A stretch of DNA of 64,000 bases from Balanoglossus misakiensis (lineage: Eukaryota; Animalia; Hemichordata): contig CM082590.2 in the NCBI GenBank assembly GCA_040954595.2, forward strand, positions 4,650,001 to 4,714,000, in the 5' to 3' direction. A program made the position numbers and the translations under genes. Shown here in pieces: positions 1,798 through 51,199 of the stretch (positions are counted from its first letter, which is position 1; the number at the start of each line of letters is the position of its first letter). The notes below the pieces were generated by a model that ran no database searches, was not told where the DNA came from, and was given only the letters and a program-made list of their open reading frames with translations.

Positions 1798-2549
1798 CAT
1801 AATTAATTCATCAAGCCATCGACCGACCTCATTATGGCAAGTTTCTACGGCAATTTAAGCCTACGTCGCAAAACTTGGATTGAGCATAATGTTTGAATCG
1901 TGAAGTGGTAGCGTAGGTCACACTATACAGGGATTACTCGATATACTCATGTCATCAATGGTGCAATTCTATTGCTGTCATGCCCCGTCAACGCTTTGAT
2001 GGGCTGCGTCATTCATTCTAAAAATGAATTCTAAAAATCTTATTTCAGGGATTTGTGGGTACATTTTCATCAAGAAACAAAGCACGCAAGCGCGGCGCGA
2101 CGAGCTCTTCCGAGGCAGGCTAAATATTTATTGATCAGTACTGCAATAGAGGATTTCATTCATGCTTATATCAGTGAGATGGGTTCTCATTTATTTGACC
2201 TATACTATGATACATATTAATATTTACAATAATATAAATCTGCTGAACTTGATCTCACATTCAACAAAACAAACAAATTAATTTCACTTTTTAAATCATG
2301 ACAAACAAACATGCTTTTAAACAAAAAATACATTGAAATATTTTTTTTTACAGAATCCATAATTAACAAGACAGGCTGTCATTGGTAAAAATAGGTTGTA
2401 AAGTCTGGGTTGTTGGGACTAAGGCAGAGGGATAGACGTTAATTATTTATTTTTATTTACCTATGTTCAAAAATGTGTGATATTGATAATAAAACATGTC
2501 AACTGATGTGTGAGTGTGGAATAGAATTAGTGTGATTACAGTAACTTAC

Positions 2550-2648
2550 TTTGGACTGCACATCAACGCTGGCATTGGATTGCAGTAGAAGTTTCACCAC
2601 ATCACCATGGCCTTTGGCTGCTGCAATGAGTAACGGTGCCGAACCAAA
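2550..2648 (-). CDS. Ankyrin repeat exon B2
   Basis: 99 bp, CACAG acceptor, GTAAGT donor, PLLIAAAKGHGDVVKLLL. Confidence 0.92.
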
Positions 2649-5600
2649 CTGTGGGAATACAACAAACATGTGTCACTGAGCATCTCTTACTATAACCGTC
2701 TGAGGAAACACACACTATTTCATTAAGCATGCAGTAGCACACATTCTGAAACATTCATTTTTGAGATGGCACAACATGTGTTGCCGACACTTTTTTTTTT
2801 TTTTTTTGGGGGGGGGGGGGGTAAATTAATAGTAGGATACATCCCAGTCCCCCACGAAATGGACATGAATGCATGATGAGGTGATAGGGCAGTGTACTTT
2901 GAGGGTACATTAACATCACATGTATTCTTTTACTTGAGATTTATGATACGCGCGTCTGTTGTTTTTATTTGAAGATACACTCTGTACAATACCTCAAACT
3001 GACAATGATCTAAATATTTTAAAAGCCTAGACAGCAGTTTCATTACCCTTTAAAAGAGCATTGGAATTAGCCAATCAAAGAACGCCAATTTTGAATGAAA
3101 GGTAAGAAATATGCGGAACCACTATTGACATTCAAATGATTATGGTAGACTTCAGCCAGACAACTTTTTTTTAGTCTCGCCAGCCAGACCTCTCTCTCTG
3201 TCATTCGACGGCATAGTCGCACGAAGTGCGCCACGAGCGGTGAAGCCACAAGAATCGACAATGTCGCTGTTTGTGGCGACCTTCGTGTGCCTGTGCGCGA
3301 CGTCGTCTGAAAGCGTGGTCTGGCCAGTGAGAATGACGTATCTTTAGAATCAGTTTCATAAAGGTAGATGCATGATGACGGTTTATGAAAGAATCGCACT
3401 TTGTAGATTTTCGGTTGAAAAGTTAGTCATCCCAAGTTTTGGGATTTTTCTGTTGAAAATGATCCTTCTGGGTGGCACATACCCGTACACCTTCCTATGG
3501 GAGTCCCCCTGGCCTGTTGTGCAGGATACATGGCACCCCTACAATTTACAATTATTTATTTTAGGAGCTTTATTTCGCTTCGCCGTTGTTACTGACAGCT
3601 ATTACACTACAGTTTGTTTAAATATAAAATAAATGTGTCATCGTGTATGTAGCAAAAGTTCATGGTTAGGTCCCTAACTTTCTGGTCAAAAAGTTAACTA
3701 TTGGTAGATTATTAATCGAAAAATCTAATTACGAATTTCGATATGAACACCCAGATCCCAACCTCTCGAATTACTTGACATTTTAATAAAATATTGCTTT
3801 ATAGTGGTATGATATTCAAAAGTGAATTGGTTGGTCTCAAAAGAGATAAGAATTTAACTTGGCCGCAGGTATAGCCACGGTCAAAAAACTCTCCCTCAAA
3901 CTCTTTCATACTTTTCATAATCCTATTATGTGTGTCGGTTTATTGCAGTAACACTAGTTTCGTAATTGACATCCGGAAGGTCGTCAACACTACAAAATAT
4001 AAGTACAGTGTCACCTTTTTGGCCGTTTGGGCTATTGGTGAGTGAGCATGTAAAGCCCCTTACCTCATTCTTAGCATTGACGTCAGCTCCATGGTCGATC
4101 AACACTTGTGCCGCTCCCAGTTGATTTGCGAGGGTGGCTACATGCAATGCTGTGTATCCAGACTGAAATTGACAAATTCATATGAATTACAACAATCTAT
4201 GTTCCAATGTTGGACTTGTAAGGTGACATGGCTATCATTTCACTGGAATTGATTTGTAACTGTAAGTGTTGACTGATATTACGAGTTAAATGTGTGTAGC
4301 ATCTATAGTTGTTTCAGACCAAAACACTATTGTTTCAGAGAACTTTTATAACGCGTCCAATAGATTGTTCTAACATGTGTTACACTATAAAATTTTAATA
4401 TAATGTAGCGCACTTTACATGTTTATGCACACTCATAGGTGCAACAGGTCTTAATATCATTTCATAAATTGCATTGATATATTGAAATTTTCAATCACAC
4501 CAAATACTCTAACAGATAAACATGGCGGACGTGATACACCCGACACAAACAATCCACTGTTTCTCCGTTGATGTAAGTTAATATTAAGATATAGCCTGCT
4601 ATGAACCCAACATTGGTACGTACATCAATGTTATAATTATTTAATGTTGCTAGGAAACATCAGAAAAAGAATTGTCTAAACCAGTCTGGACATTCCTCTC
4701 AAATTTGTCTTTTTTTAAAAAAAAGGGTTTGTAGTATCCATTGAATGGAACTGAAATCACATATGTCTGGTTCACTGAATTTAACAAAAAACATGAAAGG
4801 AAAATTGTGGTCGCGCAAATAAGTGTGAAAGTGGATTCCACTAAACAAATTGAATTCGCCCTTCTAATAAACATAAGAACGTTGCTTGTTGAATTTATGT
4901 GACCAATCTGATTAAAATCAGATGTAGAGTTAGGTGTTGTCTTTAGCTGTGGTGATCATTTTGACTGTTCTGTTCTCTGGCTTGGCGGTTCTCGGGTGTA
5001 CGGCCCCTATCCGAACAAAAAAGCCAAGAATCAGCCATAGTAAAGACACCGCCTAACTCTACAGCTGCCCAATCTCAAAGATTCAAATCACGCCTGAAGA
5101 ATACACTTGTAATACAAACACCACAGACTAAAGAAATCCGCACTTTTTGTTTATAAGGGCAATCAACGGCACTTTTCCATGAGCATATTCACCTGAATTT
5201 CGGTCGGCTTACGACGCGGGATTTAAAATCTCTATGTTGTGTCGCTTTTGGGGTTTTAATTTTTTGTGAACACTTTCATTTATTATAACGGTTGCATTCA
5301 TCTAGAATTGTCAACAACCGCGCCACAGACTGTTACTGGTCACAATACTAGTATACAGATACTTGGACATTTCATCGAACACTATGATCTTATTGAATTT
5401 CGTTTCGGTTTCAAATTTCTCTTTCTAACCTCAAATAGCTATAAGAGAAACATAAAGGAGGAAACAAGCTTTATTGTCTTACACACGTTTCTATTTCAAG
5501 TGCATTAAGCTTGTATATGAAACCGAACTACTACTATTTGCCTCTGGTTGGAATTTCTTGAGTATCGAAATGTGACAGTCAGGACAATTTTCATGGTTTT

Positions 5601-8600
5601 CTAGTGCAAAACTTTAAAGGCGAGTTCTCGTGCCGTTGAGATTCTGCGCGAGCGTGTCTACTTTGATTAACACATTTCCCAGAATGCCTCACTATTCTCT
5701 GCAAATAAAAATGGCTGCTATGGATAATAGTTAAGCGAGTGTCACTGACAGTACTAGTATAATGGTGACAGTCAATGTTTTGTGCGAGAGAGGGTGGTGT
5801 TAGAAGGACTGAGATGAGACGACATTAGGAAAGTGATAGTTCGACCTGGCGAGCAAACATGATAGTACAAGCATAATATCATCAGTGGGAATGCCGCATT
5901 CGGGCCGTTTGGATCCCTGATCCAAGTCGCACCCACAATGCACTGCTGTTAACGTGGGGCGACATAACAAAAACTTTCATATCGATCGTGCATTTTGTGA
6001 TAAAAGCTCAGATGGGTGTTAATGTGTAATTAACTCCATCGGCCATGTAATGCCGGGAACACACAGACTTGTACGCAGGGCTAGGAACACATTCCCATAC
6101 GCACAGACACATACGACACAACCCAACACAGAACTCAGCATGAACTGAACAAAGCAATTGCTCCATCGAGACCATGACCGTATTTACATGCAGACTCATT
6201 TGAATGTCAATTTTGTTATTGTTTTACGGCCGCCAAGCTGAAAGTTTTTGTTTCAGGGTTTTGACAAATATCTTTGGAGTAGGCAAGTGACAGGCAAAAT
6301 CAGGAAACAGATAATGTCTCATGACACACGGCGATGGTGTGATTTTCAACATTACCTACACAGTCATAAATTGCGACAACATGTGGTGGGAAGGTATTTA
6401 AAATAAAGTTGGGCATGACTACGGCAACACGCGACCTCCTCAACATTACCGAATGACGGTCAAAGTCCGATGCCCCAGTGTTTGTCCTCAGCCCATAAAA
6501 AAATACGAAAAATATTACAAAAATCTTCTCAAAATCTACGTGGCCTAGGACCTTGATATTTTTCACAGAGGATTTTGGCCATATGGTCTGCAAAAATCGC
6601 GAAAAGAATGTACATGCACCAATTAACATGCAAATTAGATCAATTTGAGAATTTCGCTTGATTATAGCCACCAAGTCACGTGACTAATTACAAATTCATG
6701 GGCCCCAACCACCGTGCCAAGTTTCAGAAGCGCAGCTGCAGCAGCTTCTGAGAAATATGTGGCCGAAAAAACGACTCAAGAAGAAAGAAGAAAAACTCCA
6801 GCAATTACAGAAGGGGCCCAAGCGCCCTCAGACGCTTGGGCCCTTAACAAGGTTGTAAAGTCTGAGTTGTTGGAAACATGGCAGAAGGATAGTCGTCCAA
6901 TATTTTTATATTGACCTAATTTCAAAAATCTGTGAGATTGATAATAAACCGAGTCAACTGATGTGTGAATGTATAATAGATTTATGTGATTACATTAACT
7001 TACTTTATCCTGCACGTCGACGCTGGCATTTGATTGCAGTAGAAGTCTCACCATGTCACCATGGCCATTGGCTGCTGCATAGTGTAACGCTGCCAAACCA
7101 TCCTGTGGGAACACAACAAATAATGTGTCAATGAAAATCCCTGACTATAACCTTCGAATGGAACATGCAATGTCGTCAACACTACAAAATATAAGTACAG
7201 TGTCACCTTTTTGGCCGTTCGGGCTATTGGTGAGTGAGCATGTAAAGCCCCTTACCTCATCCTTAGCATTGACGTCAGCTCCATGGACGATCAACACTAG
7301 TGCCGCTTCCAGTTTATTTCCACTGGCTGCTACATACAATGCTGTCCATCCAGACTGAAATAGATAAATTCATTTGAATTACAACAAGCTATGTTCCAAT
7401 GTTGGACTTTGTAAGGTGACATGGCTATAATTTCACTGGAATCGATTTGTAACTGTAAGTGTTGACTTATATTATGAGTTATGTGTGTAGCATCTATAAC
7501 TGTTTCAGACCAAAACACTATTGTTTCAGAGAACATTTATAACGTGTCCTATATATATTTCTAACAAGTGTAACATTATAAATTATAATATAATGTAGCG
7601 CATTATACATGTTTATTATGCACACTCATCGTACCCACAGGTCTTAATATCATTTCATAAATTACATTGATATGTTGAAATTTCCAATCACACCAAGTAC
7701 TCTAACAGATAAACATGGCGGACGTGATACACCCGACACACACAATCCCCTGTTGATGTAAGTTAATATTTATGTATAGACTGCTATGAACCAAACGATG
7801 GTACATACGGTACGTCAATGTTATAATTATTTAATTTTGCTAGGAAACATCAGAAAAAGAATTGTCTAAACCAGTCTGGACATTTCTCCCAAATTTGTCT
7901 TTTTTTTAAAAAGAGTTTGTAGTATCCATTGAATGGAACTAAAATCACATATGTCTGGTTCACTAAATTTAACAAACAACATAAAAGGAGAATTGTGGCC
8001 GCACATATTAGTGTGAAAGTGGAGTTCACTAAACAAATTTATTTCGCCCATCTAATAAACAAAAGAACTTTGTTTGTTAAATTTATATGACCAATCTGAT
8101 TAAAATCATATGTAGAGTTAGACGTTGTCTTTACCTATGGTAATCGTTTTAGCGGTTCTGTTCTCTGTCTTGGCCGTTCTCGGGTGGACGGTCCCTTTCC
8201 GAACAGAAAAGCCAAGAATCAGCCATAGTAAAGACACCGCCTAACTCTACATCCAGTTTTAACCAGATAGTTTTGTGACAATCTGAGACGGTCCCTAAAC
8301 TTACAATGGCACATAATGCATTGGGCACATGCAATCACTACATTCCTTCACAAATAAAGATATCGTCCAAATGGCAACTCTCCAGCCTGCAATGACACAG
8401 ATTCCACATATTCTTCGGGTGTCCGCAAATGAAACATTTCAGCCTGGCCTTGTCACGACTCTGACATTCTCCCTGTATTCCCAATTGACAAGCACTATGT
8501 CCATCGAAGTGCAGTAAGACGTTCATCTCCACACATGTGTGTTTACTCAATCAAGTAATTTCTACAGCTAAGATATCCATCGAAGAGCCAGAAGAAATAA

Positions 8601-11027
8601 ATAGTACAATCAATCAACAGCTGACCAACCTCAAAGAGTCAAATCACGCCTGAAGAATACACTTGTAATACAAACACCACAGACTAAAGAAATCCGCACT
8701 TTTTGTTTATAAGGGCAATCAACGGCACTCTTTTCCATGACCATATTCACCTGAATTCCGGATTGACTTACGACGCAGGATTTTTAATCTCTACGTTATG
8801 TCGCTTTTGGGGTTTCAATTATTTGTAAACACTTTCATTTTTTATGACATTTGCAAACATCGATCTGGATTTGTCAATAACCTCGCCACAGACTGTTATT
8901 GATCACAATATACGGATACTTGGACATTTTAGTCAATACTATGTTCTTATTCGTTACGGTTTCAAATTTTCTTTCTAACCTCTAACCTTGCTATTGGAGA
9001 AACAAAGGAGGAAACAAGCTTTATTTTCTGACACAATTTTGCTATTTCAAATGCATTAAGCTGGTATATCAAACACAGGAAAGGTTTGTGTTCATCAATA
9101 AAGTCGAGGTCAAATCGTTTGCCGCTTCAGATTCGTTACCTTTGTGACTTGGTTGTACGTGTGAAATGTTGAGTGAGGCAGTGCAAATACTTACCCTGCT
9201 AAGGTATACACCCTTTGCATTGACATCATAGCCATCATCTATCAACGATTGAATCCTTGCAACATCACCATCCCTAGCGGCTTCAATGAGATCCTATAAC
9301 ATTCAATGAAACATACAATTGTTATTTCTTAAATATACCGTTAAAAATAAAATTCTTCAGTATTTGAACTGACCTTTGATTATGAACAAACAACATCACA
9401 AACACCAAGAAATAATACCTAAACTTTTACATCACATTGTATAAACTTTGTGCATCGATTATATTGTAATGTATTCTAATAACACATAAACGTACACGGC
9501 TTACACCAAAATATAGATACTGGAAAATGCCCGGATGAGCCCATGGACTCATGATAAGGCAACAGTCTCAAGAGAACGGTGAAGAAATGAAATGAAAGTA
9601 TCACCATGAACGTTTGTCCAAACTGTGTGGGCAAGTTATTGTGTAGCTGTAGTAGTGTGTGGGTCGTGCGACAGCTTTGTATACCTGGTAGCTGATGTGC
9701 TTCCCAAGAAGCAATTTTGACAGTTTGATAGGGCTTGCATGATTTCCATAAAAGAAACGTGAACAAGGTTATGGTCAATTCACTGTCCAGCCGCTCTTCT
9801 GTTATAGTCTAAAGATTTGGGATCTCGTTCTGTTGGTCAGAACACGAAATCAACAACCGACGGTCAGCAAAGAACGTCACACCACGGCTGTCACTACACG
9901 GCCAACGGATAACACTTGTTTCCGTTGTGATCAGCCATAATGTCACGGTCTATGTAGACAATGTCTCATTTTATAGTAGTTAACTGTATGCGCATACGGA
10001 CTGGTCAGTTTCTTCGGCCGGGGGTGGATTCTATTTTGTGGATATCCATAAGTGACTGACCGCTCCCCTCCTTCATTGACCATACAAAAGTGGGTGAAAC
10101 CCCGCCCCCCATCACCCAATTCCAAAACAGGGTGACCTCTCCCATGAATACACCGCCCCACCCAAGGCAAAGAAACTGACCAGTCCCTTATTTCGAGATT
10201 TTGTTAATTCATACACGCGCACAATATCCCTTCATGGAAAAATGTGAATTTTTCTGAGTTTTGATCGCGAATAATAAAACATGGTGCAGACATTGCTGAA
10301 AGGAAACCATTCCATCGGTGAAATTCTGATCACAAAATACTGGAATTCCAACAAAAGGAAAACAATGAACGACATTCCAGGATAACGACAACCAGCCCAT
10401 GATGCACTGCTGAGCACAAGATGTCTGACTTGTAATTTTGTACAGATGAAGAACTCGCTGGTGTTTAACCCCTCCCCCCTCCCGTCTTGTACATGAAGGC
10501 AGACGACAATAAACCATACGCTAGAACTCGCTCATAAAATTGTGTTTACCTGGGACTTGATCAACCGGTAAAATATTTTTTGAAAAATATCGTTCAATGG
10601 AGACTTGGACTTGTGAATGGAAAACATTGTGATTAGTGTGACTTTTTTGTCAACTGGGTAATTGTTTATTTATGAATGCACTATCTAGCAATACACACAG
10701 ACACTAGAAGTTTCTATGTTTTCCGTGTGTAGGGCAAGCTGACCCGTTGAAAAATAATAAACCTATTAGGCACCGACTAGCGCCACAAGTCTAAACGTAA
10801 CCGTCATGTGTTTTGTGACCAAAATGTCTGGTTAAATTTACGTGCATGGGGTTGAAGGGAGAAATTTTGAACAACAGTCTTCAGTCCACAAACAAACAAA
10901 ATATAAACCACTCATAAAAACAGCCGTCGTACGCGTCACTGCCAGACATCGTTGCATTTGGTGTGAAATGGCGGTTGTTATAGTTCAGTTCACTTACCTG
11001 TGGATTTTTAGCTTTTCTGGAAGCCAT
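2550..11027 (-). CDS. Spliced ankyrin-repeat protein gene, 5' portion (6 coding exons; continues beyond the left edge)
   Basis: Exons 10998-11027, 9195-9293, 7256-7354, 7004-7102, 4064-4162 and 2550-2648 all have AG acceptors/GTAAG donors, are phase 0 and splice into an open frame: MASRKAKNPQ-DLIEAARDGDVARIQSLIDDGYDVNAKGVYLSR-SGWTALYVAASGNKLEAALVLIVHGADVNAKDE-DGLAALHYAAANGHGDMVRLLLQSNASVDVQDK-SGYTALHVATLANQLGAAQVLIDHGADVNAKNE-FGSAPLLIAAAKGHGDVVKLLLQSNASVDVQSK. Confidence 0.9.
3172..3336. mobile_element. Short MITE
   Basis: Imperfect TIRs TAGTCTCGCCAGCCAGACC ... GGTCTGGCCAGTGAGAAT; lies in sequence absent from the paralogous intron. Confidence 0.55.
4064..4162 (-). CDS. Ankyrin repeat exon A2
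   Basis: 99 bp, TTTCAG acceptor, GTAAG donor, GYTALHVA...HGADVNAK. Confidence 0.92.
4923..5063. mobile_element. ~140-bp MITE, copy 1
   Basis: TIRs TGTAGAGTTAGGTGTTGTCTTTA ... TAAAGACACCGCCTAACTCTACA. Confidence 0.7.
6215..6850 (-). mobile_element. Putative Helitron/Helentron-type non-autonomous element at the duplication junction
   Basis: Subterminal 11-bp stem hairpin GGGCCCAAGCG-N8-CGCTTGGGCCC (6814-6843) next to the point where homology to the paralogous intron begins; left boundary and class uncertain. Confidence 0.4.
7004..7102 (-). CDS. Ankyrin repeat exon B1
   Basis: 99 bp, CACAG acceptor, GTAAGT donor, ALHYAAANGHGDMVRLLL. Confidence 0.92.
7256..7354 (-). CDS. Ankyrin repeat exon A1
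   Basis: 99 bp, TTTCAG acceptor, GTAAG donor, GxTAL...AA...HGADVNAKD. Confidence 0.92.
8111..8251. mobile_element. ~140-bp MITE, copy 2 (copied with the exon module)
   Basis: Same TIRs at the equivalent position of the duplicated intron. Confidence 0.7.
9195..9293 (-). CDS. Ankyrin exon, N-cap-like repeat DLIEAARDGDVARIQSLIDDGYDVNAK
   Basis: 99 bp, TAG acceptor and GTAAGT donor, ankyrin consensus. Confidence 0.88.
9996..10188. mobile_element. MITE, possibly Harbinger-like
   Basis: TIRs GGACTGGTCAGTTTCTT ... AAGAAACTGACCAGTCC. Confidence 0.7.
10998..11027 (-). CDS. Ankyrin gene first coding exon (MASRKAKNPQ)
   Basis: Strong Kozak context AACCATGG, CAG|GTAAGT donor, phase 0 matching the next exon. 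Confidence 0.75.
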
Positions 11028-11129
11028 GGTTACGTTATTCACATTGTGTTGGAATACTTTAAGAATCTGGATCTGTAGCACCGCTCTGGAGTTGAACAAG
11101 TCAGCTTCGCAAATGTTCTATAATGGCGT

Positions 11130-11295
11130 CGTCGCCTACCTGGTCAGGTGATGTTGACAACAAGTTGGGGAAAACCCCGATAAATAAGGAAGTACACTAC
11201 AAAGGAAAGTAATGACAAGAGTTGGGTCAAAGTTCATAACGCCATAAAAGTGTGACATATACACTTCAATACTGTGGTGACGTCACGGCAGAATT
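11130..11295 (-). promoter_or_regulatory. Putative proximal promoter of the ankyrin gene
   Basis: kB-like GGGGAAAACCCC (11167-11178), DR1 nuclear-receptor site GGGTCA-A-AGTTCA (11224-11236) and perfect CRE TGACGTCA (11278-11285), 140-260 bp upstream of the ATG. Confidence 0.5.
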
Positions 11296-12650
11296 CCTAG
11301 ATTTCTGTTTAAATCACTAAACTGGTTGGCACATTAAGCAGCAATTTGAATATTTATGTTTTATAACAGTACGAGCAGTGGAATGGAGTGGCCTATTCCC
11401 ACTTCAGTACAGGACATAGTCTTGCTTTGCAGACTCTTCTCGCTTCACTAGTTCGCCACTAGCGGTGTGAGAACGCGAGAAGCGAAGCCAAAAGTGTCTG
11501 GGGAGAATCACTGCATTCCATTGTGATGACGTACACACAAGACAGGCAATGAATTCAAATATTACAAAGGACCCGTGACCTAGTTGACTTTCAGTCAATG
11601 CGTGTTGTGCCAGACAGTATGTGACTGACCGACAGGCCCCGTCGAAGTTGACAGCCCAGTGCAGTATAAGATATCATATACATGTACAGTGCTGTCAACT
11701 ACAGCAGTGTCTGTAATCATGTGATTGTGAGTGAATATCATTGCACATCTACGACTACATGAATCGAGGATTTTGTTTCGTTTGTCAGTTGTGGGTGAGT
11801 TCCTGTTAGTGTTGAGAAATTTAGTATTTCCCGTCTTTGCAAATTGGCATATTTTTCCAATATGTAGCATTATAGCCAAATACCACATTCTTGCCAAATG
11901 TGCCTTAAAATTTGGAATTGTTGCATGAGAGATTGAAAATCAGAATATATTATATAGAAATGAACCCACTCTCATACAATCAATTTTAAGTGGTCAATGA
12001 CCTTTAATGTACTGTACATTAAAATAAAAGATAGAATTCATAAGATATACAAGTAGTAAAACTTTTCTAAACTATAATTCAAGTGACCATCCAAAATAAT
12101 CTATAAACTCAAAAATCTCTGGTAGAATGAAGCTGAAACAAGTGCTGGCAATTAATGATTTATCTCAAACTGATATTTTTAATCATTTCATCGCCATGGT
12201 TTAGCTTAAATTAATTGTCTTCTAGAGTAAAATTGGACCTCTATAGAAGGAAATGGGGTTGAAAGAATTAAGGTAGTTTTGTACCTTGGAAATTAAAATC
12301 TTAAATTTAGACTAAAAATGTTGGGTCATGGTGCAAATTTAAATGAGAGAACAAGGCGATATAATCTCTACCACGTTGTTTCATGAGTCACTGGACTGAC
12401 CCATCAGGAGACTAAACTGGCCAGTTTATTACTTTTTGCCTTTTAAAACACATCAACAATTTTCAAGATTAGAAATTCCGGTACTCATACCTATCAACAC
12501 TTGTTGATGTGGTCAGTGGAGGAAACATTATAAATTATGTATTTTGATGGTTTGGCTTTAAACAAAAAAACAGAAAAACATTTTTAAAATACAAAAAAAA
12601 TTATGAAACTAGCTTATCAATCTAGAATTTGTAAAGTGAGACATATTTGA

Positions 12651-12975
12651 AGCCCCATGAGCTGCCAAATTCCACATTATTTCTCACAATAAAATACATA
12701 ATAAGATCTTCTCCCTATATCCCCATTACAATTTGCACCATCAAGGCACACTACTTGCATACCACAATAGTTGTGTACTATTTGTATGGAGGCAGATTAA
12801 ACAGGCATGGCACCCATTTAATATATCAGTTGTTCAAATTGCAACATCCATACACAATATGGCGTTGACAAGATGTTCATTTATACCTACCAGTTTAAGC
12901 TCATTTAGATGGACCAATCTAAAGTTGGAAAGTAAAATCATGAAAATAATGCAAAAAGTGGCAGCTCTTGAGGAT
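12651..12975. mobile_element. TTAA-target MITE (Kolobok-like), diverged copy
   Basis: AGCCCCATGAGCTGCCA ... TGGCAGCTCTTGAGGAT then TTAA; homologous along its length to 34288-34594. Confidence 0.7.
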
Positions 12976-13819
12976 TTAAAGAAGGGCAATTGACACATGA
13001 CCCACAACACACGCACTGATAAGAACATCAGTGTAAGAACCGGGTTGGCAAACAGTTTCAGGCAAACATTGACCAGCTGTCATAAAACTGCCGGTCAATT
13101 GTATTGCTCTTTTCAACATAGAATGGCCTTCACCTGCATCTGATTACATGTTGGAGTCAGTGAGACTTCATGTGTACCAATGTCCAGTGTGTAATTGTTA
13201 TCAGCACTGCTCAACTGCATTCATACTTTTTAATTGAAACTTAAATTTTCACTATTGTTCCTATTAGCCAACATCGATTGAGTTGTTGTTCATATCAGCG
13301 CGTTCACACTCACTCATGTACTAAGTAAAGAAGTGTAAATGACATCCGTGCCTACACAAGAACATAAGTTTGGCCTTCCATTCATGAGGTTTCTGTGACT
13401 ATTGTTTATTGACATGCTGTCTGTTGAGCTTTGTGTCTTAAAGATTAAATACTGTTTGTTGTATTAGCTTTACGCCAGTAGACTTAGACGGAAACCACTC
13501 AACACACTTAATATATAGCACAGAATGTTTGTTTAGTCGACAGAAAAACACCCCACCACAATCAAGTAGCTACAAACATTTTTCAACCAGATCGCGATAA
13601 AGTCAGGAATTATCGTGAGCTACAGTTTATAACAGGTATTTGGCAAAATATTGTCGCAACCTTGGCCCCTTCAGAGCAACATTTTCTGAGTTGCCAAAAG
13701 AGGCCGTGATTTATTTCGCATGTTTTTAATTATACTAGTTTAGTATCTAGCCGTATTTTGTCCGCTTTGCTTTCAAAATTATGTCTAGAGTCATGCATGC
13801 TACTACATGCCACTGGCCC

Positions 13820-14047
13820 AATAGAACCTGGGAATTGTGATGTAACTAGCGTCCCTCTGAAGTCAATCCCTGACTGTTTTTCCTAGGATTGGACAAATGA
13901 TATACATGTGTATAATTAAGGATGGGTAATTTTTTTTTATTTCAAATTAGCCCCACCTTCACTATAATCTAACGCCCAATCACCAGTGTTCAGTTTATGT
14001 GATTGACTACAAGGAGGTGCTAGTTACATCACAACTTCTAGACTATT
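13820..14047. mobile_element. MITE
   Basis: Imperfect TIRs containing TTGTGATGTAACTAGC ... GCTAGTTACATCACAA; absent from the homologous segment near 22180-22200. Confidence 0.65.
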
Positions 14048-17000
14048 CGAGCGCTGGCGAAATGGAACCAATCAGAACGTGCGTCTCATAAATGTATCGA
14101 AATGCAAATTTTAACCGTTACTTTGCCTTGCCGATTGGTATTATTTTTTTCTACTGCAGATCGCTGTCCTGCGTGAGTGTTGGGTGATTGGTGGTGATTG
14201 GCTGCTCTGTTTCGGCCTTTGTGTAAATCACGGTCGAGGAGTGACCGTGTGTAAATGCATGTGCCCGTGTCCGCTTATTATCCGGAGACTTCAGTGGAGT
14301 CGCTCAGGTCTGACTGTCAAAAGGACACCGCTCGAACAAGTATGCAGTAAATCATTACATGTTGTGTAGAATATTGTATTTCAAGGGGTATATTTTTTTG
14401 AAAATTGGGCCAGGACAGGCCTAAATTGCAGGCCCAGTCAGACGAAATTGTGTCTACAGCACATTATATAGCTATGTCAGCCCAGCTGTCACATATATAG
14501 CTATGTCAGCCCAGCTGTCACATATATTGTGAAAGGCTAGCGCCATACCTGCGTCACCTTGAAGGAACTCATGTCGGGTCAGAGGTCATCATTCATTTAT
14601 ATTGCATGACTCCGGTCTGCCATGTTTATAGAAGCACTGTCAGAATGACTACAAAGTAACACAGGCATGTATTTCAACAGGTGTTTTATCTCAGGCTAGG
14701 ACCTGCTGCTCATAAAAAGTTAGTTTACAACAAATCAGCGAAAAAGGTTAAATACGTGTAACCAGTAAAATTTTAAATAAAATGTCGTAATGAAAGACCG
14801 GGAATTCTCTGTTATTCGTCACACGTTGGATAACCGCGTGTGTCATGAAGAAATTAACTTAACGTTAAGTAGTGCGTAAAACGGATAAACGCTGAGTACG
14901 TTCAAGGTGGCATTCCATGAAAAGTTGTGACTTTTGCCAAATTTTACTTTTTTACATAAATCGGTAGGTCTAATACTGATCCACATTCTGACAAATGCGT
15001 CTTGGCGGAAATGGTGCATAATCACTTTTTCTGAATGAGTCCTCAGCTTAAGAAATAGTTGTCGAAAATGCAAATTGCCGTTTTTCTCAGTTTTCATTTT
15101 CGCTGCTTTTGACAACTTCAGAAGAATTTAGCTTCGCTCTGCGTTGGCCGAATTTGCTCAAATTTTAACAGGGGATTGTGTATAACCCATCTAGCAATAC
15201 GAAATTTGTTTAGTCGATAAAGTGTTCCTGGCGGGAATAAACTCGGATTCAATACAACTCACTGTGAATTTGATCAAATTTCCTAAAAATCTAACTTTCA
15301 AACGCTGTTACTCCTCAATGGAAGCAGATAACGCAAAACAAAAGTTTCTTTTTTGCTCGTTTTGAATGACATATTTAGATGCATGATGCATGATCAACTT
15401 TCTACCTAATTTCAATTGCATGACGTAATATAAAAAAAAAATAGTTTTTTTAACCCCAAAACGCCACCATTTTCGGGGGTCATTAAAATGTGCAACTCAA
15501 ACAAAAGTACAAAAACTAAGCTTCCAGAATATGTATGGTTCATAGGGGTTTTAAAGTTGTCTTTAAAAGTGTGGCATAAAGAATCTATCCCAGTACTATG
15601 GTGACGTCATTCTAAAATGCATGCTTGTTTTAAACTACCAAAATTATGTTGTTGTTTTTGACAGATACTGGCTTCGCTCAGACCAAATCGTTATCATACA
15701 ACACCTGTATTTACTAATGTGTTAGTATTCTAACTGAATATGAGCCAGTATTTCCATTAATGAAAACACATGCAGAAACGGGTTTTAACTGTTTGGCCGG
15801 AACTATTTTTGAGAAGTAACGTGCTTTATCATCACACTATGTTGTATGATATCCAAACCAGATGCAACTTTGTTTTGTTACAGATATAAAATAAGGCCGC
15901 ATTATTTTGCAAAGACTCTAAACTCGTCGATCAAAATCACACTAACGCATAACGTGTGGCTAACGGACAGTACGCATTTTCAGGACGTTCAGATCCTGGT
16001 CGCTCATAAATCATCCCGGCTGTATAGTCCAAAAATCCACAGACTGCAAACAAATGATTTTCCAGCCTATTTCTGAAAAAATGTCAATGCTTACTAAAAT
16101 GTTGATATATCTTAGCCAGATTCCTCTGGAAACAACTTGCTACACAGCGGAGCGAATAAGGAGTGGACGACCGTTCCCTTGCGAGCGACGCACGGGACAA
16201 TGGACTCTAGTGGAAAGAAGGGTTGTACTGTAGGGTTATAGAATTTGTAATCTCTTTGTCAAAGCTTGCAGTCTTGCCATGTTGACCGTAACATTAGAAC
16301 TTCGCCGGGATTTCACAATGCGAAATCATTGTAAAAATATATTATTTTGAAAGAAAGCAGAATATTTTTTTATTTGAATGTGGAGCATCCCATTTGAATA
16401 ATTTTACAGCCTACGTTGATCACCTGATCGATAAGTTACCAACATGGCTATACTCCAGCGACACCCACGCGACAGGTTCACACATCTTGGCGTGAAATTG
16501 TTTATCTCAACGGGCGCATCTTTTCAAAGGATAGCGTTTTTTTAAAGGTATGCATGTATGTTTGACCGATATCGCGCTGCATTCTGGTAATGTGACAATA
16601 TTTTCACTCCTTGCTGCACAACTCAAAATATGAAAAACATGTGCATACATTAGCTGAATACAACGCGATATTGGTAAAACTTGTTGTACTATCTCCTAAA
16701 TAATGCCCATAATGTAATATGTAAATGGGTCTCTGAGGAAATGACGGTTGTAAAAGAAATGCTGGAGTGTCCAATGAATGTGTCGTTTAGGATAGACTCA
16801 GAAACGCGACAAAACCCCTTTGCAATGTAAACAAAAATGCCGACATGCACTCTGAACTCGCACCTGTAAAACAAAAAAAAGCAATAGTCGTCCATCATGA
16901 ATAAAGATTATTCATAAAATAATATTGTAGAAGTTATGGATTTTAATTAAGAATACCTCTTGCCAACCTACATCTTCTTTTCATAATCTCGAATAAATTC

Positions 17001-18949
17001 AATAATCCTTGTGGCATCATTTCCAACTTCCATAAACGAACTAATAATTGCAACATTAGCTAACTTTAGTCTTGAACTCAATTCCACTGGACGTCGACCT
17101 GCATACACGCTCAGAATAGCCATGGAACGACAGAGCAAACAACTTTGATAACAACGGAACTTTGTGTGGTTTCTCACTGTCCCCTGTTGCCCCGCACAAA
17201 TGGAATTCAACAAAACCACTCGACACCATTTATTGCAACCAGTGTTTATTTTTACGCACATAAAATACCCCAGCTGTAATATATAAACATATAAAGCTAT
17301 AAAATCTGAATCTTTTCCTCCCTATAAATGAATGTTATGCCAATCAGCCTAGTAATATAGAAATAATGGACGACGCCCTGACCATAAACGTTTGTTTATG
17401 GGCAAGGGCGAGGGGAAAGCCAAAAATTCATGGGCGAGGCTTCCGAGCCCATGAATTTTGGCTTTACTCGATCAGGGCGGAGTCGGTTATTTCCATTATA
17501 TTACCAATGAAGTCAAGAAAAATTACATCACTGCAGTAATCTAATGAAAAGGCTTCCACAAAACATGTGAAATGATCTTCTGTTTGAAACAAACTTCAAT
17601 ATAGAGATCACAGAGTACACAGCACGAAACCACAGGCACATTTCAGTAAATACTTGTAACGGTTGCTTTTCACTATCTGTCCCAGTAGGTCTACGTATGT
17701 AATAATTGCTGTTACAGGCCTTGTAAGGTTGATCAGATATAAGACGTCTGGTATTACAGGTGTGTATACAGGGATGTCATTTCTGACTGTATATAGTGCT
17801 GTGATCACATGAATGAAACAGTGGAGTGGAGTATGAATGCTACGTACATGGTGTGTTCGTGTCTGTGTTGAATTGACAGGTCGTTCGGAAACATGGGTCC
17901 ATTTAGCCTCGAATACAGGCACAGTTGTTTGTACATTGGTTACAATTCTCTGTCGATATGGCTTTCCACGGTACTGTACATGACCTCTATTTGAAGTCTG
18001 TACAAACAGTGATTGGACAGGCAAATATTTGAGGCCCTGTCATGTTACTGTGTCTACAGCGCTTTATATAGTATAGCTGTCAGCCAAGCTGTTATATTAA
18101 TTGTGAATGACCATCCCTATGCCTGCGTCACATTGAATGGACCCATTTCGGGTCAAAGGTTATCCTTTTATATGCTGTCAATCCAGACTGCCCTATTTAC
18201 AGATGCATTGTCAGAATGATTACAAAGTAACACAGGCAAATATTTCAACAGGTGATTTACCTGAGGTTGCTCATAAAATTATGCTTTTAATATACCAGCG
18301 AAAGAGTTTATACGTGTAACCAATACATTGAAAATAAAATGTCGTTCAGCAGAGACCAGGACTTCTCCGTCATTTTTGTCGCACGTACGTATATTCTGTT
18401 GAAGAAAATAATACATCAATAAGGCCACACATCAAGTAGGTTTAATTGATTGACATTAAAATAATAAGGCTAACTGACTTGCCGCAAAGTTTTCGCATGA
18501 TATTATAAATCATATGACACTACAGTAAAAGTCAATTGGTTTAAATATGAATTAAAAATAAACTAGACTTACTTAGAGCAGTTGTTGTCACTGCCAGGTT
18601 TTATTGCATTTGATGTGAAGCGCCAGCATCCTAACATATAACGTAATGTCGGCTACCTGGTCAAGTGAAATTCGAGGAACGTCACATTCCGATAAGAATA
18701 AGGAAATAAAAAATCGAGAATTTTGACAAAAATTAGTGACACTTATAATTTGGCGCTTGGTAGGGGCATGAAAATATCATATTCATTTATTGTTTATTAA
18801 AATTCGTTTAATTGCGAAATGAGAACATTTCGTAAGTCAGGTTTATGACTATGCGTACGGGTCACAATCCCGTCGGTAGGTTTGATGTGAAGACCATTCA
18901 AACAGTATTGCAGTATTTGTGAGCTATTAAACTTTCCCGCTTTGTTTTG

Positions 18950-21880
18950 TGCTTTTGTTAACTGGTACGGTGCGCCATGTGTATCCGATAGGCTGCAGTT
19001 GTATGCAATGTTAACTTGGTTTGTGAACAATAGGACAAATATGTACATTTTTATTATAAATACTTGAATATTTTCATGTTAAGAAGAGTTTGGCTTTCCC
19101 CCCACAGTCCTTCCTTGACGATCTCCGGGCATAGGCGGACAGCCCTGGAAGCATTCACTTCATTTCAAACATGTACACAAAAGTTAAATCATTGCAACTT
19201 AAGTCGCAAACTCAGTACACTCAACATAGATTTCTAAATGACACGCCATCAAAACGATTGGATCTGCATACACAGTCACGACACTAACTCAGTGACAGTC
19301 TAATGCAACCAACTTCATAGCAACGGCATTGATAACAAACACCACTTGGCAGGATTTATTGCTGTCAACGTCTGCCTTGCACGAATGAACTTCGAGCGAA
19401 ACCACTCGACACTATTTACTGTAACCAGTGTTTGTCTTTGCAGACGCAAAAAAAACCTTCCAGCTAAATATAAAGACATACAGTTTAATGGCTGTCAGAA
19501 CCACGTCAAACAGTCTCAGACAGGTCAGCCCAAGTTTGGATTTCCATCCGAGTACTACTGTAGTCCCCTCTCTGGGCGCACACAAAGTCAATCGGATACA
19601 ACGTTCTCACATGTTCAATGTTGTCAAGTGAGATAAAGCATTGCTAGCAGTTATCATAGCCGTAGAGAATGGCATACACCTGGATTTGATTACATTTGGA
19701 GTCAGTGAGACTCTTTGTGTGCCAGTGTCAATTGTATCATGTTCATCAGCACCATGTACACTCGTACATTTTGACTACAATTTAATACACCATTGACCAG
19801 CCTCAATAAAACTGTCAGCCACTTCTTTTGTATTGCTCTTATCAGCGCTCCCCCTTTGGTTCAATGTAAACAAACGCGGAGGATATCTTTGCCAACACAT
19901 GACTACTTTATAATAATAACATTCTCAAATTTGACCTTCAATATATGACGTTTGGGACTATGTACATTAGGGTTTTTGTTGTTGAGGATAAACTGGTATG
20001 GTGTGCCATGTGTATCTGATAGGCTTCAGTTGTATGAAATATTAACTTGGTTTGTGAACAATAGGGCAAATATGTAGTTTTTTATTATAAATACATTTAT
20101 CACATAAACCGGCCCTGATCACCAGCTGTGTGATGTAGACCAGGACAGATCAAAAATCCAGATCACCCCTGTGTTACCTCATCAACCGCAACTATTTCCA
20201 CCGATTCGCCGTAGCTTTGTTGTCAAACAGAAACAGTACGTGTAGCGCGCGGCATTTACAATTCAGAAATGAAATAAAGAAATGACGGTTCCATGACAAT
20301 ATTGCTTTGTAAGCTCAAAACAGAAAGGTGGAATTTGGAAAGAAGACAGTCGACGCAACGATCATAGACGATCGTGGCTGTCAAAGTTTTGGGTCAGGTA
20401 CACATAGCCTAGGCTAGGCGCAAGTCCGGTACGTTCCGAGTCGAATCAGTGTGGGGAATTGTTTCGAGCCAGTTCAGCGTGACGACTGAACCTCTCTATT
20501 CCACCTGTCAACGAAATGTATAAGACGTGGCAACAGGTTGCAGTAAAATTGTTAGAGAATCGATTACATTTGTGTAAGGCTGAACTTCGAGCGAACGGAA
20601 CTCAACGACTTGTTGGGAGATTTTGTGAATGATCAGCGATAGTTCATCATTTGCGTATATGCAAATGATGAACTATCGCTGATCATTCATAAAATCTCCC
20701 AACATATATCTCGTGGGGGGAAATAATCCTGCTCAGTAAAAATACGACGCCGCTCCAAAATTGTTGCAAGATACTGAATTTTTTTAGTAATGCCTCTTCT
20801 AACGAACAATAAGAAGACTGTTCATGTGATAAATATATAATCCCATGATATCTTTCTTTGTTTAACGTCATCGTATACTCGTGGTTTTCGCGGAAGCGTA
20901 CAACTTCTCGCCTGCAGCTCGAAGTTGCATTGCTCCGCGAAAACCACTCGTATACGATGACGTCAAACAAAGAAAGATATCATGGGATTATATGTAAGTA
21001 TATTTTCATGTTAAGAAGAGTTCGGATTTCCCCTCACAGTCCTTCCTTGACGATCTCCGGGCATAGGCGGACAGCCCTGCAAGCATCCACTTCATTTCAA
21101 ACGTGTACACAAAAACTAAATCATTGCAAATTAACTCTCGAACTCAGTACACTCAACACAGATTTCTAAATGACACGCCATCAAAACGATTGGATCTGCA
21201 TACACAGTCACGACACTAACTTAGTGACAGTCTAAAGCAACCAACTTCATATCAACCGCATTGATAACAAACACCACTTGGCAGGATTTATTATCTGTCA
21301 ACGTCTGCCTTGCACGAATGATCTTTGACCAAAACCACTCGACACTATTTACTGTAACCAGTGTTTGTCTTTGCAGACGCAATAAACCCTTCCAGCTAAA
21401 TATAAAGACATACAGTTTTATAGCTGTCAGAACCACGTCAAACAGTATCAGACAGGTCAGCCCAAGTTTGGATTTCCATCCGAGTACTACTGTAGTCCCC
21501 TCTCTGGGCGCACACAAAGTCAATCGGATACAACGCCCTCACATGTTCAATGTTGTCAAGTGAGATAAAGCATTGCTAGCAGTTATCATAGCCGTAGAGA
21601 ATGGCATACACCTGGATTTGATTACATTTGGAGTCAGTGAGACTCTTTGTGTGCCAGTGTCAATTGTATCATGTTCATCAGCACCATGTACACTCGTACA
21701 TTTTGACTACAATTTAATACACCATTGACCAGCCTTAATAAAACTGTCAGCCACTTCTTTTGTATTGCTCTTATCAGCGCTCCCCCGTTGGTTCAATGTA
21801 CACGAACGCGGAGGATATCTTTGCCATCACATAACTACTTTATATAACATTCTCAAATTTGACCTTCAATATATGACATT
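18950..21880. repeat. Tandem duplication of a ~1-kb non-coding unit; second copy carries a ~900-bp insertion
   Basis: 18960-19065 matches 19990-20094 and 19070-19955 matches 21000-21880 at high identity. Confidence 0.92.
20091..20993. mobile_element. Non-autonomous element with A...A'B'...B layout and two long palindromes
   Basis: Present in only one copy of the duplication; left end 20091-20105 complementary to 20824-20838; 20835-20993 is a near-perfect inverted repeat. Confidence 0.75.
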
Positions 21881-24299
21881 TGTAGATTAGGTATTGTTGT
21901 TGTTTAGGATATTCCGATCTGATGGTTCGGAATTAATTTTCATACAGTCTTGTAATTAGAAGCTGTGCTCCTTGAGAATTAAACATAGTTTGTTCTATTT
22001 GCTTAACCCGTATAGACATTGACCAAAACAATTCCACCACTATCAAGAAGTATACAAATACTTTACAACCAGATCGCGATAAAGTCAGGAATTAGCTAGA
22101 GTTCATACAGCTGTTTGACATGCATCATCGCAACCACGGCCCCTCTAAGGACACTAGTTCCACGTTGGCAGAAGAGGCCGTATTTATGAATCGAACTCTA
22201 TCCAATCAAAACGTGTTTCTCAAAATTGTGTTCATATGTAAATTAAATCCCTTCTTTGCCTAGCCGACTATTATTCTATTTGAACTGCAGATCGCTGTCC
22301 TGCGTGAGTGTTGGGTTATTGATGGTCATTTGCTGCTTTTTCGGCGACGGTGTAAATCACAGTCGAGGAGTCGAGTAGTGACCGTGTGTTTATGCATGTG
22401 TTCGTGTCCGCTTATTGACCGGAGACTCTAGTGGATTCGAAAAGGCCTGGCTGACAAAAGGACACCACTTGAACCAGTCAGTACACAGTAAACTATGACA
22501 TGTTAAATAGCTCCATGAGTATACACATGTATTACAGTAGACTACATCTGGGACACACCGCACTGACTACATGATCGTGTGTCTGCATCGCCACGGAATT
22601 ACAATTTACATACATGTAAAATTTAAAGCTTGAAACGTTGAACAATTTTGAAACATACGTAGAGTATTTTGGTCCGGCAACACCGTGTGTGTTCTGGAGA
22701 AGATATTGACTACACTGTTATCATAACGTCACACTAACCTTTGTCCTTACTGACCCACGTACAGTTGTCTTCTTATAGGGAGAAAACAATCTTCTACACC
22801 ATTTTATCAATTAATCAATACAAGATTTTGACACCAATGTTACAATTTCAGGCTGTCGAGTGTTGCTAAACGATGCCCGTTAAATTCACTACTGACCGCC
22901 GCCACAGTTTACAAGCATTGGACGTTGTGTGCGTCTCTCGTTCGTTCATGCAGTGACACGCGTGAGGGCGAGAACATTACTTTAATGCTGTAATAATGTA
23001 CATGTGCTTCAAGTCAAATCTGACACGACCTTTAGTTAAGTGTCCGTAAGAAATGTTAACGTTTCTTGGTTAAAGTATGTGTAGGTCTATTCTAATCAGC
23101 GAGGGTTACATTTTGCCAACTTCCCCAAAACAATATCATCGAAAGGTTCATACAAAATATTTCATTCACCGACGCATGCGTACTTGAGCATCATGCCGTG
23201 AAGAGACACTTTCATGGGGAAGGGATTAGCAATGTTAAGAAAATATCTTAGAAAGTGCCTGTTACAAAAGAAGGTGATGTAAAAGTTTAATAATAACATA
23301 TAATGCCGCTTTTTGAATCGCTAGAAATTTGAAACACAAACACATAAGCACTGGTTGGTCGTAATTGCTCGGAAAATTGATGTTGTGCAATTTTCACAGG
23401 AGAAGAAATTGAGTGAATTGATATTTACCGGAAAAAGTCACAGCGCAGCCGGCGACAGGAATTGATTTTACTTGTTCAGTATTAAAGAAGACGTGTTCGT
23501 TGTCTAATGGGGGCGCTGCACTACACAAAGGTTTATTGTTTTAACCAAAGCTTCCAAAAATCAGCCAAATAAAAAGTTATCGGCACCCAAACTAGATCTG
23601 TTCATACCTTGTGAGAGAGTGGTTCGATTCACCACATCAAAGAAAACATAACGATAGAGTCTGAAACGGCTGCACAACTTAAGTACATCATGGCGAACAA
23701 TTATTCTCCGCATATACGTCATCGATAGCCTTAATTAACACCTGTGGAAAAGGCAGTCGGTGTTATCCTTCTAATGGCTTCTGTTGCACTTCATCAATCA
23801 TTCTGGAGAGTACAACAGAGGATAATAAAATATTGGGATCACCGACTCTTGTTTTTAAAATACAAGGTCAGGAATATTGTCTATAATTGAAGGAAATTAC
23901 CAAGCTAGCATTTGTTCGCCAATGGTTTGTCGATTGGCAAAACATTATTGAATTGTATCTCAAAGTATATTGCTGTAACCATACGCTTTTATTTGACCGC
24001 TTAATATAATAATTGTATTTGACTGAGCTATGTGTACAATTTCATGAAAATGACAATAGTAACATCAATTGTTCTAGCAAATCTCAATGAAAACTTTCGG
24101 GAAGAAAATAATGTGCAAACATGTTCGCAGTTTACAGGTTTACTTTGTGCGCATACATCCGTAACACACGCACTGTAATCGTGACATACGAGAAATTCAT
24201 TCAATTGTCACAACCATTTAGTGATTTATCATCAAATGTAAATTTTTGTGACACAAGCTGTTTCTCTTCATCTCTATTTCAGTTGAAGGATCAGTTTGG

Positions 24300-26693
24300 T
24301 GTCCTATACATATCAGGATTTTTATTTTGGTCCATTTTGAACTTTGTGATTGGCCGCAGGAAATTCTCCCAAAGTGAAATTAGTATTCAGTCATGGTTTG
24401 ACTAATTCAGTAACCTTTACAAAAAATGCCACGACATTGAATCGGGGGATTTGGAGTTCTTGCGCTCTGTGGAGGAAGAAATAAATCTGTATACATGTAA
24501 CAACAATGATCTAGAAGAGAACGATCAGCATACCAATGATGTGTGTAATGATCCAATAACAGAAACTGAAGTCTTGAATTGTCTGAGAAAGCTTAAAAAT
24601 GGGAAAGCACCAGGGCCTGATGGTCTGCCCAACGAATTTTATAGCTATGCAGCGGATGTAATTTTGCCACTATTAGTGCAAACATTCAATTTTATTTTTG
24701 AGTCTGGAAGATTTCCTCCTGAGTGGCCAGTTGCCATTGTCATTCCACTGTTCAAGAAAGGAGTCAAAAGTGATGTAAACAACTACATGAGTATTTCTTT
24801 GTTAAATGCGCTTGGAAAGGTCTTTACTACAATACTGAACGATCGCTTAACAAAATGGTCCGACAGTTCAAATATCCTCTCAGACTGCCAAGAAGGTTTT
24901 AGAAAAAATCACGGCACTACGGATAACATTTTTACCTTACACGCCATCATTCAGAAATATTTAAGCGTCCGTCGTGGAAAACTTTACTGTCTCTTCATTG
25001 ACTTTTCCAAGTCATTTGACAGGGTTAACCACTCCCTCCTGTTGTACAAACACATGTCGCTAGGCATCAAGGGAAAATGTTTCGCATTTTAAAATCCATG
25101 TATTCCAACATTAAGTCATGTGTCAGAGCGGGCAATGTCTCATCACACTATTTTGATTGTCCAGCTGGGGTCAGGCAGGGATGTATCCTAAGCCCTATAT
25201 TATTCAGTTTCTTTATAGAAGAACTTAATTCTATGTACATGTCAGCTGGTATTATGGGTGTTCAGCTTACCCAAGAATTGTATGACCTTTTCTGTTTATT
25301 ATACGCAGATGATGTTGTCATTTTTGCTGATTCTATTAGAAATTTGCAATGTTTGATTGATATTTTAGCCCTCTTTTGCACTAAATGGCGTATGCAGATC
25401 AATTTTGATAAAACAAAGGTAATGATATTTCGTAAAGGTGGCCATCGTTCGCGATGGGAGAAATGGCATTTTAATGGAACTGCGATTGAGATTGTTTCTT
25501 ATTATAAGTACCTTGGCCTTCTCCTTTCCTCACGAAATTCATGGTCCAAAGCAGTTTGCACCTTAGCCAACCAAGCAAACAAAGCCTTAACTTCACTCTC
25601 AGTCGGAAGGTGGAAACTTGGTCACTTTGATTGTAATGTTCATTTTAAACTGTTTGATGTGCTTATTCTGCCAATCCTTTGTTATGGTTCAGAAGTCTGG
25701 GGCCATCAATATTTTGATGCTATAGAGAAAATTCAAAGGAATTGGTGCAGAAGAATATTGGGTTTACCTAAGAATGCCACAAATGAAGCTGTACTCGGAG
25801 AATGTGGGCGCTTCCCTATTTATTATTACACCCTGAAACGTTGTATCTGTTTTTGGTTAAAGCTGTTAGAAATGCCCAATGACAGAATTCCGAAACAAGC
25901 TTATATTATGTTATGTAATTTGGATAGTATAGGCAGACGTACTTGGGCGTCATCTATAAAGGATATTCTATTCTCATTTGGGCTGGGTTTTGCATGGGTT
26001 GCTCAGGAAGTGGGCAACAAGCAATTATTTCTTTCGACATTTCAACTATAAGAGTGCAGGATATTTTTAGACAACAATGGAGAGAAAACATGGCATTGAA
26101 ACCAAAACTTCGCACTTACATTCAATTCAAGAGTATTTTAGAACCTGAAAAATATCTTTCCATCCAGTGTCACCACAATGTTATCCAAATGTATTCACGT
26201 TTTCGGTGTTCCTCACTTCCTCTCGCTATAGAGGAAGGCAGAAGACACCACATCGACCCAGCAGACAGACATTGTAAATTTTGTAACACCAAAGCAGTTG
26301 AAGATGAGTACCACTTTCTAGTAATTTGTCCACTGTATAACAATCTCAGAGTACGATACTTACCAACTGATCTGTTTTTAGAGCCAAACTTTTATAAGTT
26401 TACCAGTGTAATGAACACAAATGATTCAGACACCATACTCAGACTTTGTAACTTTGTTCATAGAGCAGTCAAGCTCAGAGAAAGAGCCGATGCAAATGTA
26501 TAACATTTTCACTACTGATTTTTAATTGTCTCCCACTGTAACTTTCTTCCGTTTTCATTATCCACGTGATGTTTGTAATCTTTTTGTTTTGTTTTTGTTT
26601 TGTTTTGACGAAGTAATGGAAATACTGAATGTAACCCCCCTTTGCACATGGGCCGGAGGCCTTGAAACGCAAATAAAGCATTATTATTATTAT
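24300..26693 (+). mobile_element. 5'-truncated, frameshifted non-LTR retrotransposon (RTEX-like) with reverse transcriptase
   Basis: KAPGPDG, FIDFSKSFDRV, GVRQGCILSP, LLYADD and YKYLG RT motifs over three overlapping ORFs (24451-25092, 25077-26051, 25943-26503); C-terminal CKFC...EDEYHFLVIC finger; AATAAA then (ATT)n tail at ~26672-26693. Clade assignment is tentative. Confidence 0.93.
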
Positions 26694-37610: not shown

Positions 37611-38379
37611 TATTTAAAAAGAAAAAAAAATCATCAAAAATCAAAGCACTATAAACCTAGTAATCACACAATGCATATACATGCAACGATGCAAATGCAT
37701 TAAAAGTGTGATATAAAAATACTTAATTATGTCAAGTAAAGGCAAAATCATTAAGGTAATATTAAAGAACCTACTTGTTCACTGAGTCTGTTGATTGGGG
37801 CCATCGTTGTGTGGGACTCGCTAGCAATGTGGGGAAAATCTATTGATTATCGACAGACTCAGTGGGCAAGACGTGACCATAAAATAGATATACCAACATA
37901 TCGAACTGTTGAATACTACGCAAACAAACAAAAAACCCAACTAATGAACTGATCCCAGGAAACTACACTTGACTTGAAGGATCTATTGCAAGTTTTAGTG
38001 GACTTGAAGAATATATTGAAATATTTTTCTCATCATGAAATTAAGTTAGTCATGCTAAACTATGGTATTATAAAAACATATTGCAATTGAAACCTTCTCA
38101 TCTGTTATAGCCATTGGAAAAATTCATTAAAGACATACCCTAAAAAAATAGGAAAAAGAACACAGACAGATAATAAAATCCTAAAAATTTTAAAATGCAC
38201 ACACACATACATACCGTATTCTTTATTTATAATATGGGAAAGTACAACGGAGCAAGCGACAGACGCGCGAGCGCAAAAACATAAATTGCATGAAGACGGA
38301 CTGCAATCTTGGGATTCTTGGGATCTTGTAGAGAACCAGCTTCATCAGATGACCAAAAACATCCTAGGCGCGGAAAGAA

Positions 38380-51170: not shown

Positions 51171-51199
51171 GTAATGTACTTCAATGGCTGGTTACTCAA

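Follow-up and report, generated by a model that had tools for sequence, protein, structure and literature searches.

The window analysed here is a 64,000-nucleotide (nt) stretch of the Balanoglossus misakiensis genome (GenBank assembly GCA_040954595.2, contig CM082590.2, positions 4,650,001 to 4,714,000), and all coordinates below are positions within it. On its minus strand lies an ankyrin-repeat gene whose start, as judged from the sequence, is probably near position 11027. An earlier reading of the DNA (hereafter, the original prediction) listed four 99-nt ankyrin exons, and a scan for 99-nt exons flanked by AG and GT added a fifth at 9195-9293. All five are open, in phase 0 and bounded by AG/GT ends. 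Four of the five match Pfam Ank (PF00023) with 30-39 bits against a gathering score of 21.1; the fifth gave no Pfam match when scanned alone and looks like an N-terminal ankyrin cap. The remaining four form an A-B unit that occurs twice together with its flanks, in the order A-B-A-B, the duplicated flanks of the B cassette spanning about 0.2 kb (Table 1). The five exons thus have the features expected of exon shuffling, namely, one repeat per symmetric exon, with the A and B cassettes duplicated along with their flanks. The best explanation of the data, to which we assign a probability of roughly 0.65, is that the gene belongs to a multi-copy ankyrin family that is diversifying at its binding face and likely encodes an intracellular sensor.

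Table 1. Features of the ankyrin gene and its surroundings.
Feature	Position	Strand	Evidence
Probable first coding exon, ATG + 10 codons, GTAAGT donor, phase 0	10998..11027	-	Sequence reading; start use inferred
N-terminal, cap-like ankyrin-repeat exon, 99 nt, phase 0	9195..9293	-	AG/GT ends, open; phmmer matches ankyrin arrays; ESM features
Ankyrin exon A1	7256..7354	-	AG/GT, phase 0; Pfam Ank; variants in sample contigs
84-nt donor-side intron flank of A cassette, uniform among copies	7172..7255	-	1/84 vs A2 flank
Acceptor-side flank of B1	7103..7171	-	Sequence comparison; contig loose ends
Ankyrin exon B1	7004..7102	-	AG/GT, phase 0; Pfam Ank; variants in sample contigs
Hypervariable B1 codons (repeat positions 10, 13, 14)	7079-7081, 7070-7072, 7067-7069	-	Sample contigs
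Ankyrin exon A2	4064..4162	-	AG/GT, phase 0; Pfam Ank
Ankyrin exon B2, last exon found	2550..2648	-	AG/GT, phase 0; Pfam Ank
A cassette copy 2 (exon + ~1.4 kb flanks)	3977..5523	.	Copy 1 = 7169-9074; blastn 89%/1096 nt, 85%/476 nt
B cassette copy 2	2393..2700	.	Copy 1 = 6850-7155; blastn 83%/309 nt
Palindromic kappaB-like site, ~140 nt upstream of probable ATG	11168..11179	.	May be chance

The counts on which the original prediction was built were reproduced exactly. Exons A1 and A2 differ at 14 of 99 nt, giving 10 amino-acid changes and one silent codon, and B1 and B2 differ at 17 of 99 nt, giving 9 amino-acid changes and four silent codons. The repeat positions affected by the five multi-base codon changes are 5, 13, 3, 10 and 1, and the intron segment 7172-7255 differs from 3980-4063 at one of 84 positions. 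However, this segment is an unfair comparator, being the best-conserved piece of the duplicated introns and unrepresentative of them. The other duplicated pieces differ at 127/1329, 16/69 and 26/156 positions, and the pooled divergence, including the 84-nt segment, is 170/1638 (10.4%). Considered by itself, one difference in 84 is improbable at a divergence of 9.6% (P = 0.002), but 43 of the 1246 overlapping 84-column windows of the long intron alignment have at most one difference. With 31 differences in 198 nt, the exons lie only modestly above the introns (p = 0.03). The Nei-Gojobori ratio of nonsynonymous to synonymous divergence (dN/dS) over the whole exon is 2.16 for A and 0.77 for B, and 1.17 when pooled (Fisher p = 0.82). 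The whole-exon argument for selection therefore fails, both because the intron comparator was unfair and because the pooled ratio is not significant. The statement that the changes lie mainly at the binding surface was also too strong: the six positions classically randomised in designed ankyrin repeat proteins (DARPins), which we take to be 2, 3, 5, 13, 14 and 33, account for 6 of the 19 replacements, and the set 2, 3, 5, 10, 13 and 14 accounts for 7.

The latter set was randomised as one exposed surface in a DARPin library, in the description of which position 10 faces the binding side and position 33 is not directly in the binding face (passages of PMC3308923). We adopted it as the binding-face set after the data had been seen, and the assignment rests on the passages of that source. 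In the A and B pairs, the binding-face codons differ at 12/36 nt compared with 19/162 elsewhere (p = 0.004), and 7 of their 12 residues are changed compared with 12 of 54 (p = 0.03). The same 12/36 also exceeds the intron divergence of 170/1638 (p = 0.0002). When only the first and second codon positions are considered, the binding face differs at 9/24, which is higher than both the introns (p = 0.0005) and the silent sites (7/50, p = 0.03). The contrast was weaker for the classic six positions, with p = 0.04 for nucleotides (10/36 versus 21/162) and p = 0.09 for residues.

Variation among further copies was read from one public sample, whose three DNA runs share 0.35, 0.29 and 0.03 of the sequence words of the window; no RNA run was among the matches listed, which speaks neither for nor against expression. 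Because it carries fixed differences from the window, the sample probably represents another individual or a close species. A total of 176 contigs from run X1 and 142 from run X2 aligned to 6980-7380 (401 nt). Position 7090 in exon B was covered by 26 X1 contigs, which is above the expectation for alleles of two genes, contig depth as such not being convertible to gene copy number. Of the 39 variant rows in the alignment, exon B has 24, exon A has 13 and the intron has 2. As judged from the distance-to-end column, the alignment appears to be blind at codons 1-4 and 30-33 in exon B and at codons 1-2 in exon A. When four near-fixed rows are set aside, 16 of the 20 remaining rows in exon B fall in codons 10, 13 and 14, that is, in 3 of the 25 visible codons, and a permutation over any three codons matched this clustering once in 200,000 trials. 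In exon A, the residue pairs at positions 13 and 14, decoded by hand, take seven forms (S-G, L-A, R-E, E-E, E-K, D-K and F-N), and position 5 is likewise variable.

The variant table comes from a single sample, is unphased and applies a 4% share threshold, so that rare variants are hidden at high depth. The depth over exon B is strongly uneven, at 5,900-16,700 in the 3′ half but close to 1,100 across the variable zone, and the threshold acts unevenly with it. Rows within about 31 letters of the alignment ends are apparently unlisted, and some loose ends resemble more distant ankyrins. It might be supposed from these properties that the pattern is an artefact of short assembly-graph contigs from several old ankyrin subfamilies being laid on one reference. 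Because the threshold was applied at unequal depth, we repeated the comparison within the low-depth zone 7058-7090, dropping the fixed difference at 7090. All nine positions of codons 10, 13 and 14 are variable there, compared with 2 of the 24 positions in the eight interleaved codons (p = 1.4e-6), and both variable framework positions are silent. At first and second codon positions, codons 10, 13 and 14 are variable at 6/6, whereas the third positions of the framework codons are variable at 2/8 (p = 0.009), a contrast that speaks more for selection than for relaxation alone. The codon contrast thus persists inside the low-depth zone. In addition, the contig pieces align gap-free over 73-99 nt and extend into the B acceptor intron, and the pairs within the window, which involve no mapping, highlight the same positions. 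An artefact of this kind is accordingly very improbable.

The per-site enrichment and the sample contigs support diversification centred on the binding face, the part of the original prediction that stands, whereas its whole-exon counts set against the 84-nt intron do not. Its conclusion is thus probably correct, but on grounds that differ from its own. Several observations weigh against it, beginning with the limits of the variant table and the non-significant whole-exon dN/dS. The codons outside the binding face diverge at the intron rate (19/162 versus 170/1638, p = 0.59). No ROC, death, TIR, NACHT or kinase sequence was found in the 64-kb window. Moreover, four framework positions (7, 9, 19 and 25) are replaced in A1 and B1, the other letter making up 94-100% of the sample depth there.

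The last of these observations is what would be seen if the family is diversifying and the present copy is decaying or relaxed, its cassettes drifting. Only two silent differences stand beside the four framework replacements, and A2 has a further one at position 18 (row 4116) that is absent from the sample copies. The equality of non-binding codons and introns agrees with drift, as do the mobile-element remnants within the downstream intron; the absence of exon indels is not significant (2.4 expected, P = 0.09). At one loose end in exon B, the majority letters read as a stop at position 14 (mean of 3 differing contigs, agreement 0.89), broken copies being neither counted nor excluded by this. 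On the other hand, the five ankyrin exons of this copy are all open, 99 nt long and in phase 0, with AG/GT ends, and letters not shared with the sample are expected if it represents another individual or a close species, as the shared-word fractions of 0.35 and 0.29 suggest. Moreover, the A copies are themselves polymorphic for a change at position 9 (row 7335). We regard decay of the present copy as unlikely, albeit deserving of attention.

Ankyrin surface positions are generally variable, and the pattern could reflect ordinary ankyrin evolution, in which exposed positions are unconstrained and the framework is conserved, with neither positive selection nor an immune role. The pooled dN/dS near 1 fits this explanation, and 12 of the 19 replacements lie outside the binding-face set. 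However, relaxation alone would give equal rates, unless conversion had lowered the intron and silent baseline, and the binding-face codons outpace the introns, the silent sites and, in the runs, the neighbouring third positions. Ordinary evolution therefore appears rather improbable to us, and we retain diversification at the binding face as the preferred explanation.

The intron flanks bear on how such cassettes may spread. Over the 84 nt of the A donor flank, the sample contains no substitution row at or above 4% and one 7-nt insertion, compared with 13 rows in the adjacent 99-nt exon A, high depth at this flank hiding rare variants. Beyond loose ends at 7169 and 7173, the contigs resemble the longer A2-B2 intron. 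The 153-nt A1-B1 intron therefore looks as if the donor flank of an A cassette and the acceptor flank of a B cassette had been joined near 7172. Gene conversion or unequal crossing-over through the near-identical flanks may have produced such joints. The uniform flank could conceivably also be a splicing element. A Dscam-like docking pairing for it was unsupported, with complementary matches of only 9 nt.

Downstream, no further exon or microexon was detected by strict patterns in 1-2549 or in the introns. Since no exon was found after B2, and the left 2.5 kb contains mobile-element remnants, the intron following B2 appears to run off the left edge, with the coding sequence continuing beyond the window. 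This region includes a 1.16-kb stretch (168-1331), bounded by terminal inverted repeats of 32 nt (173-204 and 1299-1330), which is skipped by one contig in each of the runs X1 and X2 (joint 167-1332). It adjoins the 3′ remnant of a long interspersed element (LINE) with a zf-RVT match and a poly-A tail (1295-1800).

No P-loop or Roc motif was found in the six frames of the window, which the gene appears to leave, and a Roc-type motif was present in 0 of 277 proteins retrieved. Within the window, the gene differs in layout from NLR/STAND proteins, in which a NACHT or NB-ARC domain precedes the repeats: only the probable first exon of 10 codons stands ahead of the ankyrin exons, and no P-loop occurs. 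The searches gave generic ankyrins and no close protein relative. The protein search with A1 gave 7 matches among 21 candidates, all generic ankyrins, and that with B1 gave none among 23. The best 120 of 4371 hits of the exon-profile search were mostly vertebrate ankyrin-1, and the best 150 of 3433 for the N-terminal exon were generic ankyrins, 31 of which were scanned against Pfam for their top five families each. Single-repeat identity peaks at about 68% among the first 157 proteins. The ESM Atlas returned generic ankyrin clusters, and the PDB returned generic ankyrins and DARPins. A metagenome scan with a 21-nt pattern found six loci, whose similarity to the window extends over 36 nt at most.

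Upstream of the probable ATG, the kappaB-like site is followed by what we take to be an ETS-like core, GGAAGT (together 11168-11190), the kappaB consensus likewise being our assumption. The window has five kappaB-like matches against 3.72 expected, and 31 of 100 shuffles reach five, which is not above chance. Several non-coding duplications lie at 12900-22500, upstream of the gene (e.g., 19068-19990 and 21000-21911 at 94%), and short matches to the exon 1 region at 18587-18668 may be what is left of a second, decayed 5′ region. At 24406-26500, three open frames that overlap on the plus strand resemble the reverse transcriptase of a LINE in broken form. Repeats make up most of the right half of the window. 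A 91-nt tandem unit occurs there in 108 copies with 97% matches and a strong A-over-T skew of about 0.55 (38378-48206), and satellite-like arrays with CAT-rich microsatellites lie at 36037-37535, 50331-53574, 54925-60032 and 26698-27721 (289-, 274/276- and 171-228-nt units).

Two natural systems resemble this locus, as far as the passages of the sources cited here describe them. The ankyrins of Podospora anserina NLR proteins consist of near-identical repeats with five positively selected positions; with one exception, the selected and polymorphic sites lie on the inner helices and the hairpin, and polymorphism in repeat number suggests recombination (Dyrka et al. 2014, PMC4986451). The Podospora proteins are fungal and carry their repeats at the C-terminus, after NACHT/NB-ARC, whereas the present gene is from an animal and has an N-terminal array with one repeat per exon and duplicated flanks. 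In the LRR-ROCO genes of brown algae, each symmetric exon encodes one repeat, the exons are duplicated and shuffled, and the N-terminal array is under positive selection on its concave binding face (Zambounis et al. 2012, PMC3341825; Teng et al. 2024, PMC11378527). Symmetric one-repeat exons, their duplication and an N-terminal array have counterparts here, and count-based tests, though not the whole-exon dN/dS, point to binding-face selection as well. The algal exons are 72-nt, phase-2 LRR exons, with ROC-COR and alternative splicing demonstrated, whereas ours are 99-nt, phase-0 ankyrin exons known from genomic sequence. By analogy, the locus would work like the Podospora ankyrins and the one-repeat algal exons. 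The positions randomised in the DARPin library (PMC3308923) include those varying here, that is, 5, 10, 13 and 14, and position 3 in the B pair. DARPins are synthetic, and they resemble the present exons through the geometry of the ankyrin fold rather than through common descent; any library-like use of the exons inside a single animal would be conjectural. Passages on hemichordates describe expanded immune-domain families and contain no ankyrin-cassette ROCO (PMC8195603). We found no animal family with one ankyrin per exon of this design in the literature searched, most subscription papers being outside its scope.

If the family is indeed diversifying at its binding face, cassettes would multiply and be exchanged by unequal crossing-over or gene conversion through their near-identical flanks, and selection would preserve the fold but favour changes of side chain on helix 1 and in the hairpin. 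In this view, the array would bind a fast-changing ligand and control a C-terminal signalling module beyond the window, for which ROC-COR with a death-fold domain is a candidate that we consider slightly better than an even bet. The receptor function and the immune role are putative. A bolder possibility is that each animal draws on a genome-wide stock of interchangeable cassettes and combines them, through skipping of exons or recombination at the uniform 84-nt flank, into a DARPin-like repertoire coupled to a death-signalling GTPase, which would amount to an anticipatory receptor system in an invertebrate; we find this doubtful.

Diversification of a binding face through single-repeat modules is already known from fungi (ankyrin, WD and TPR repeats) and brown algae (LRR exons), and the window contributes a gene start and the alternating A-B arrangement. 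Should the family prove to be expressed and to be linked to a death-signalling module, it would represent an overlooked variable sensor in invertebrate innate immunity, and it would reveal the ankyrin positions that are varied by natural selection, in a form comparable with designed libraries.

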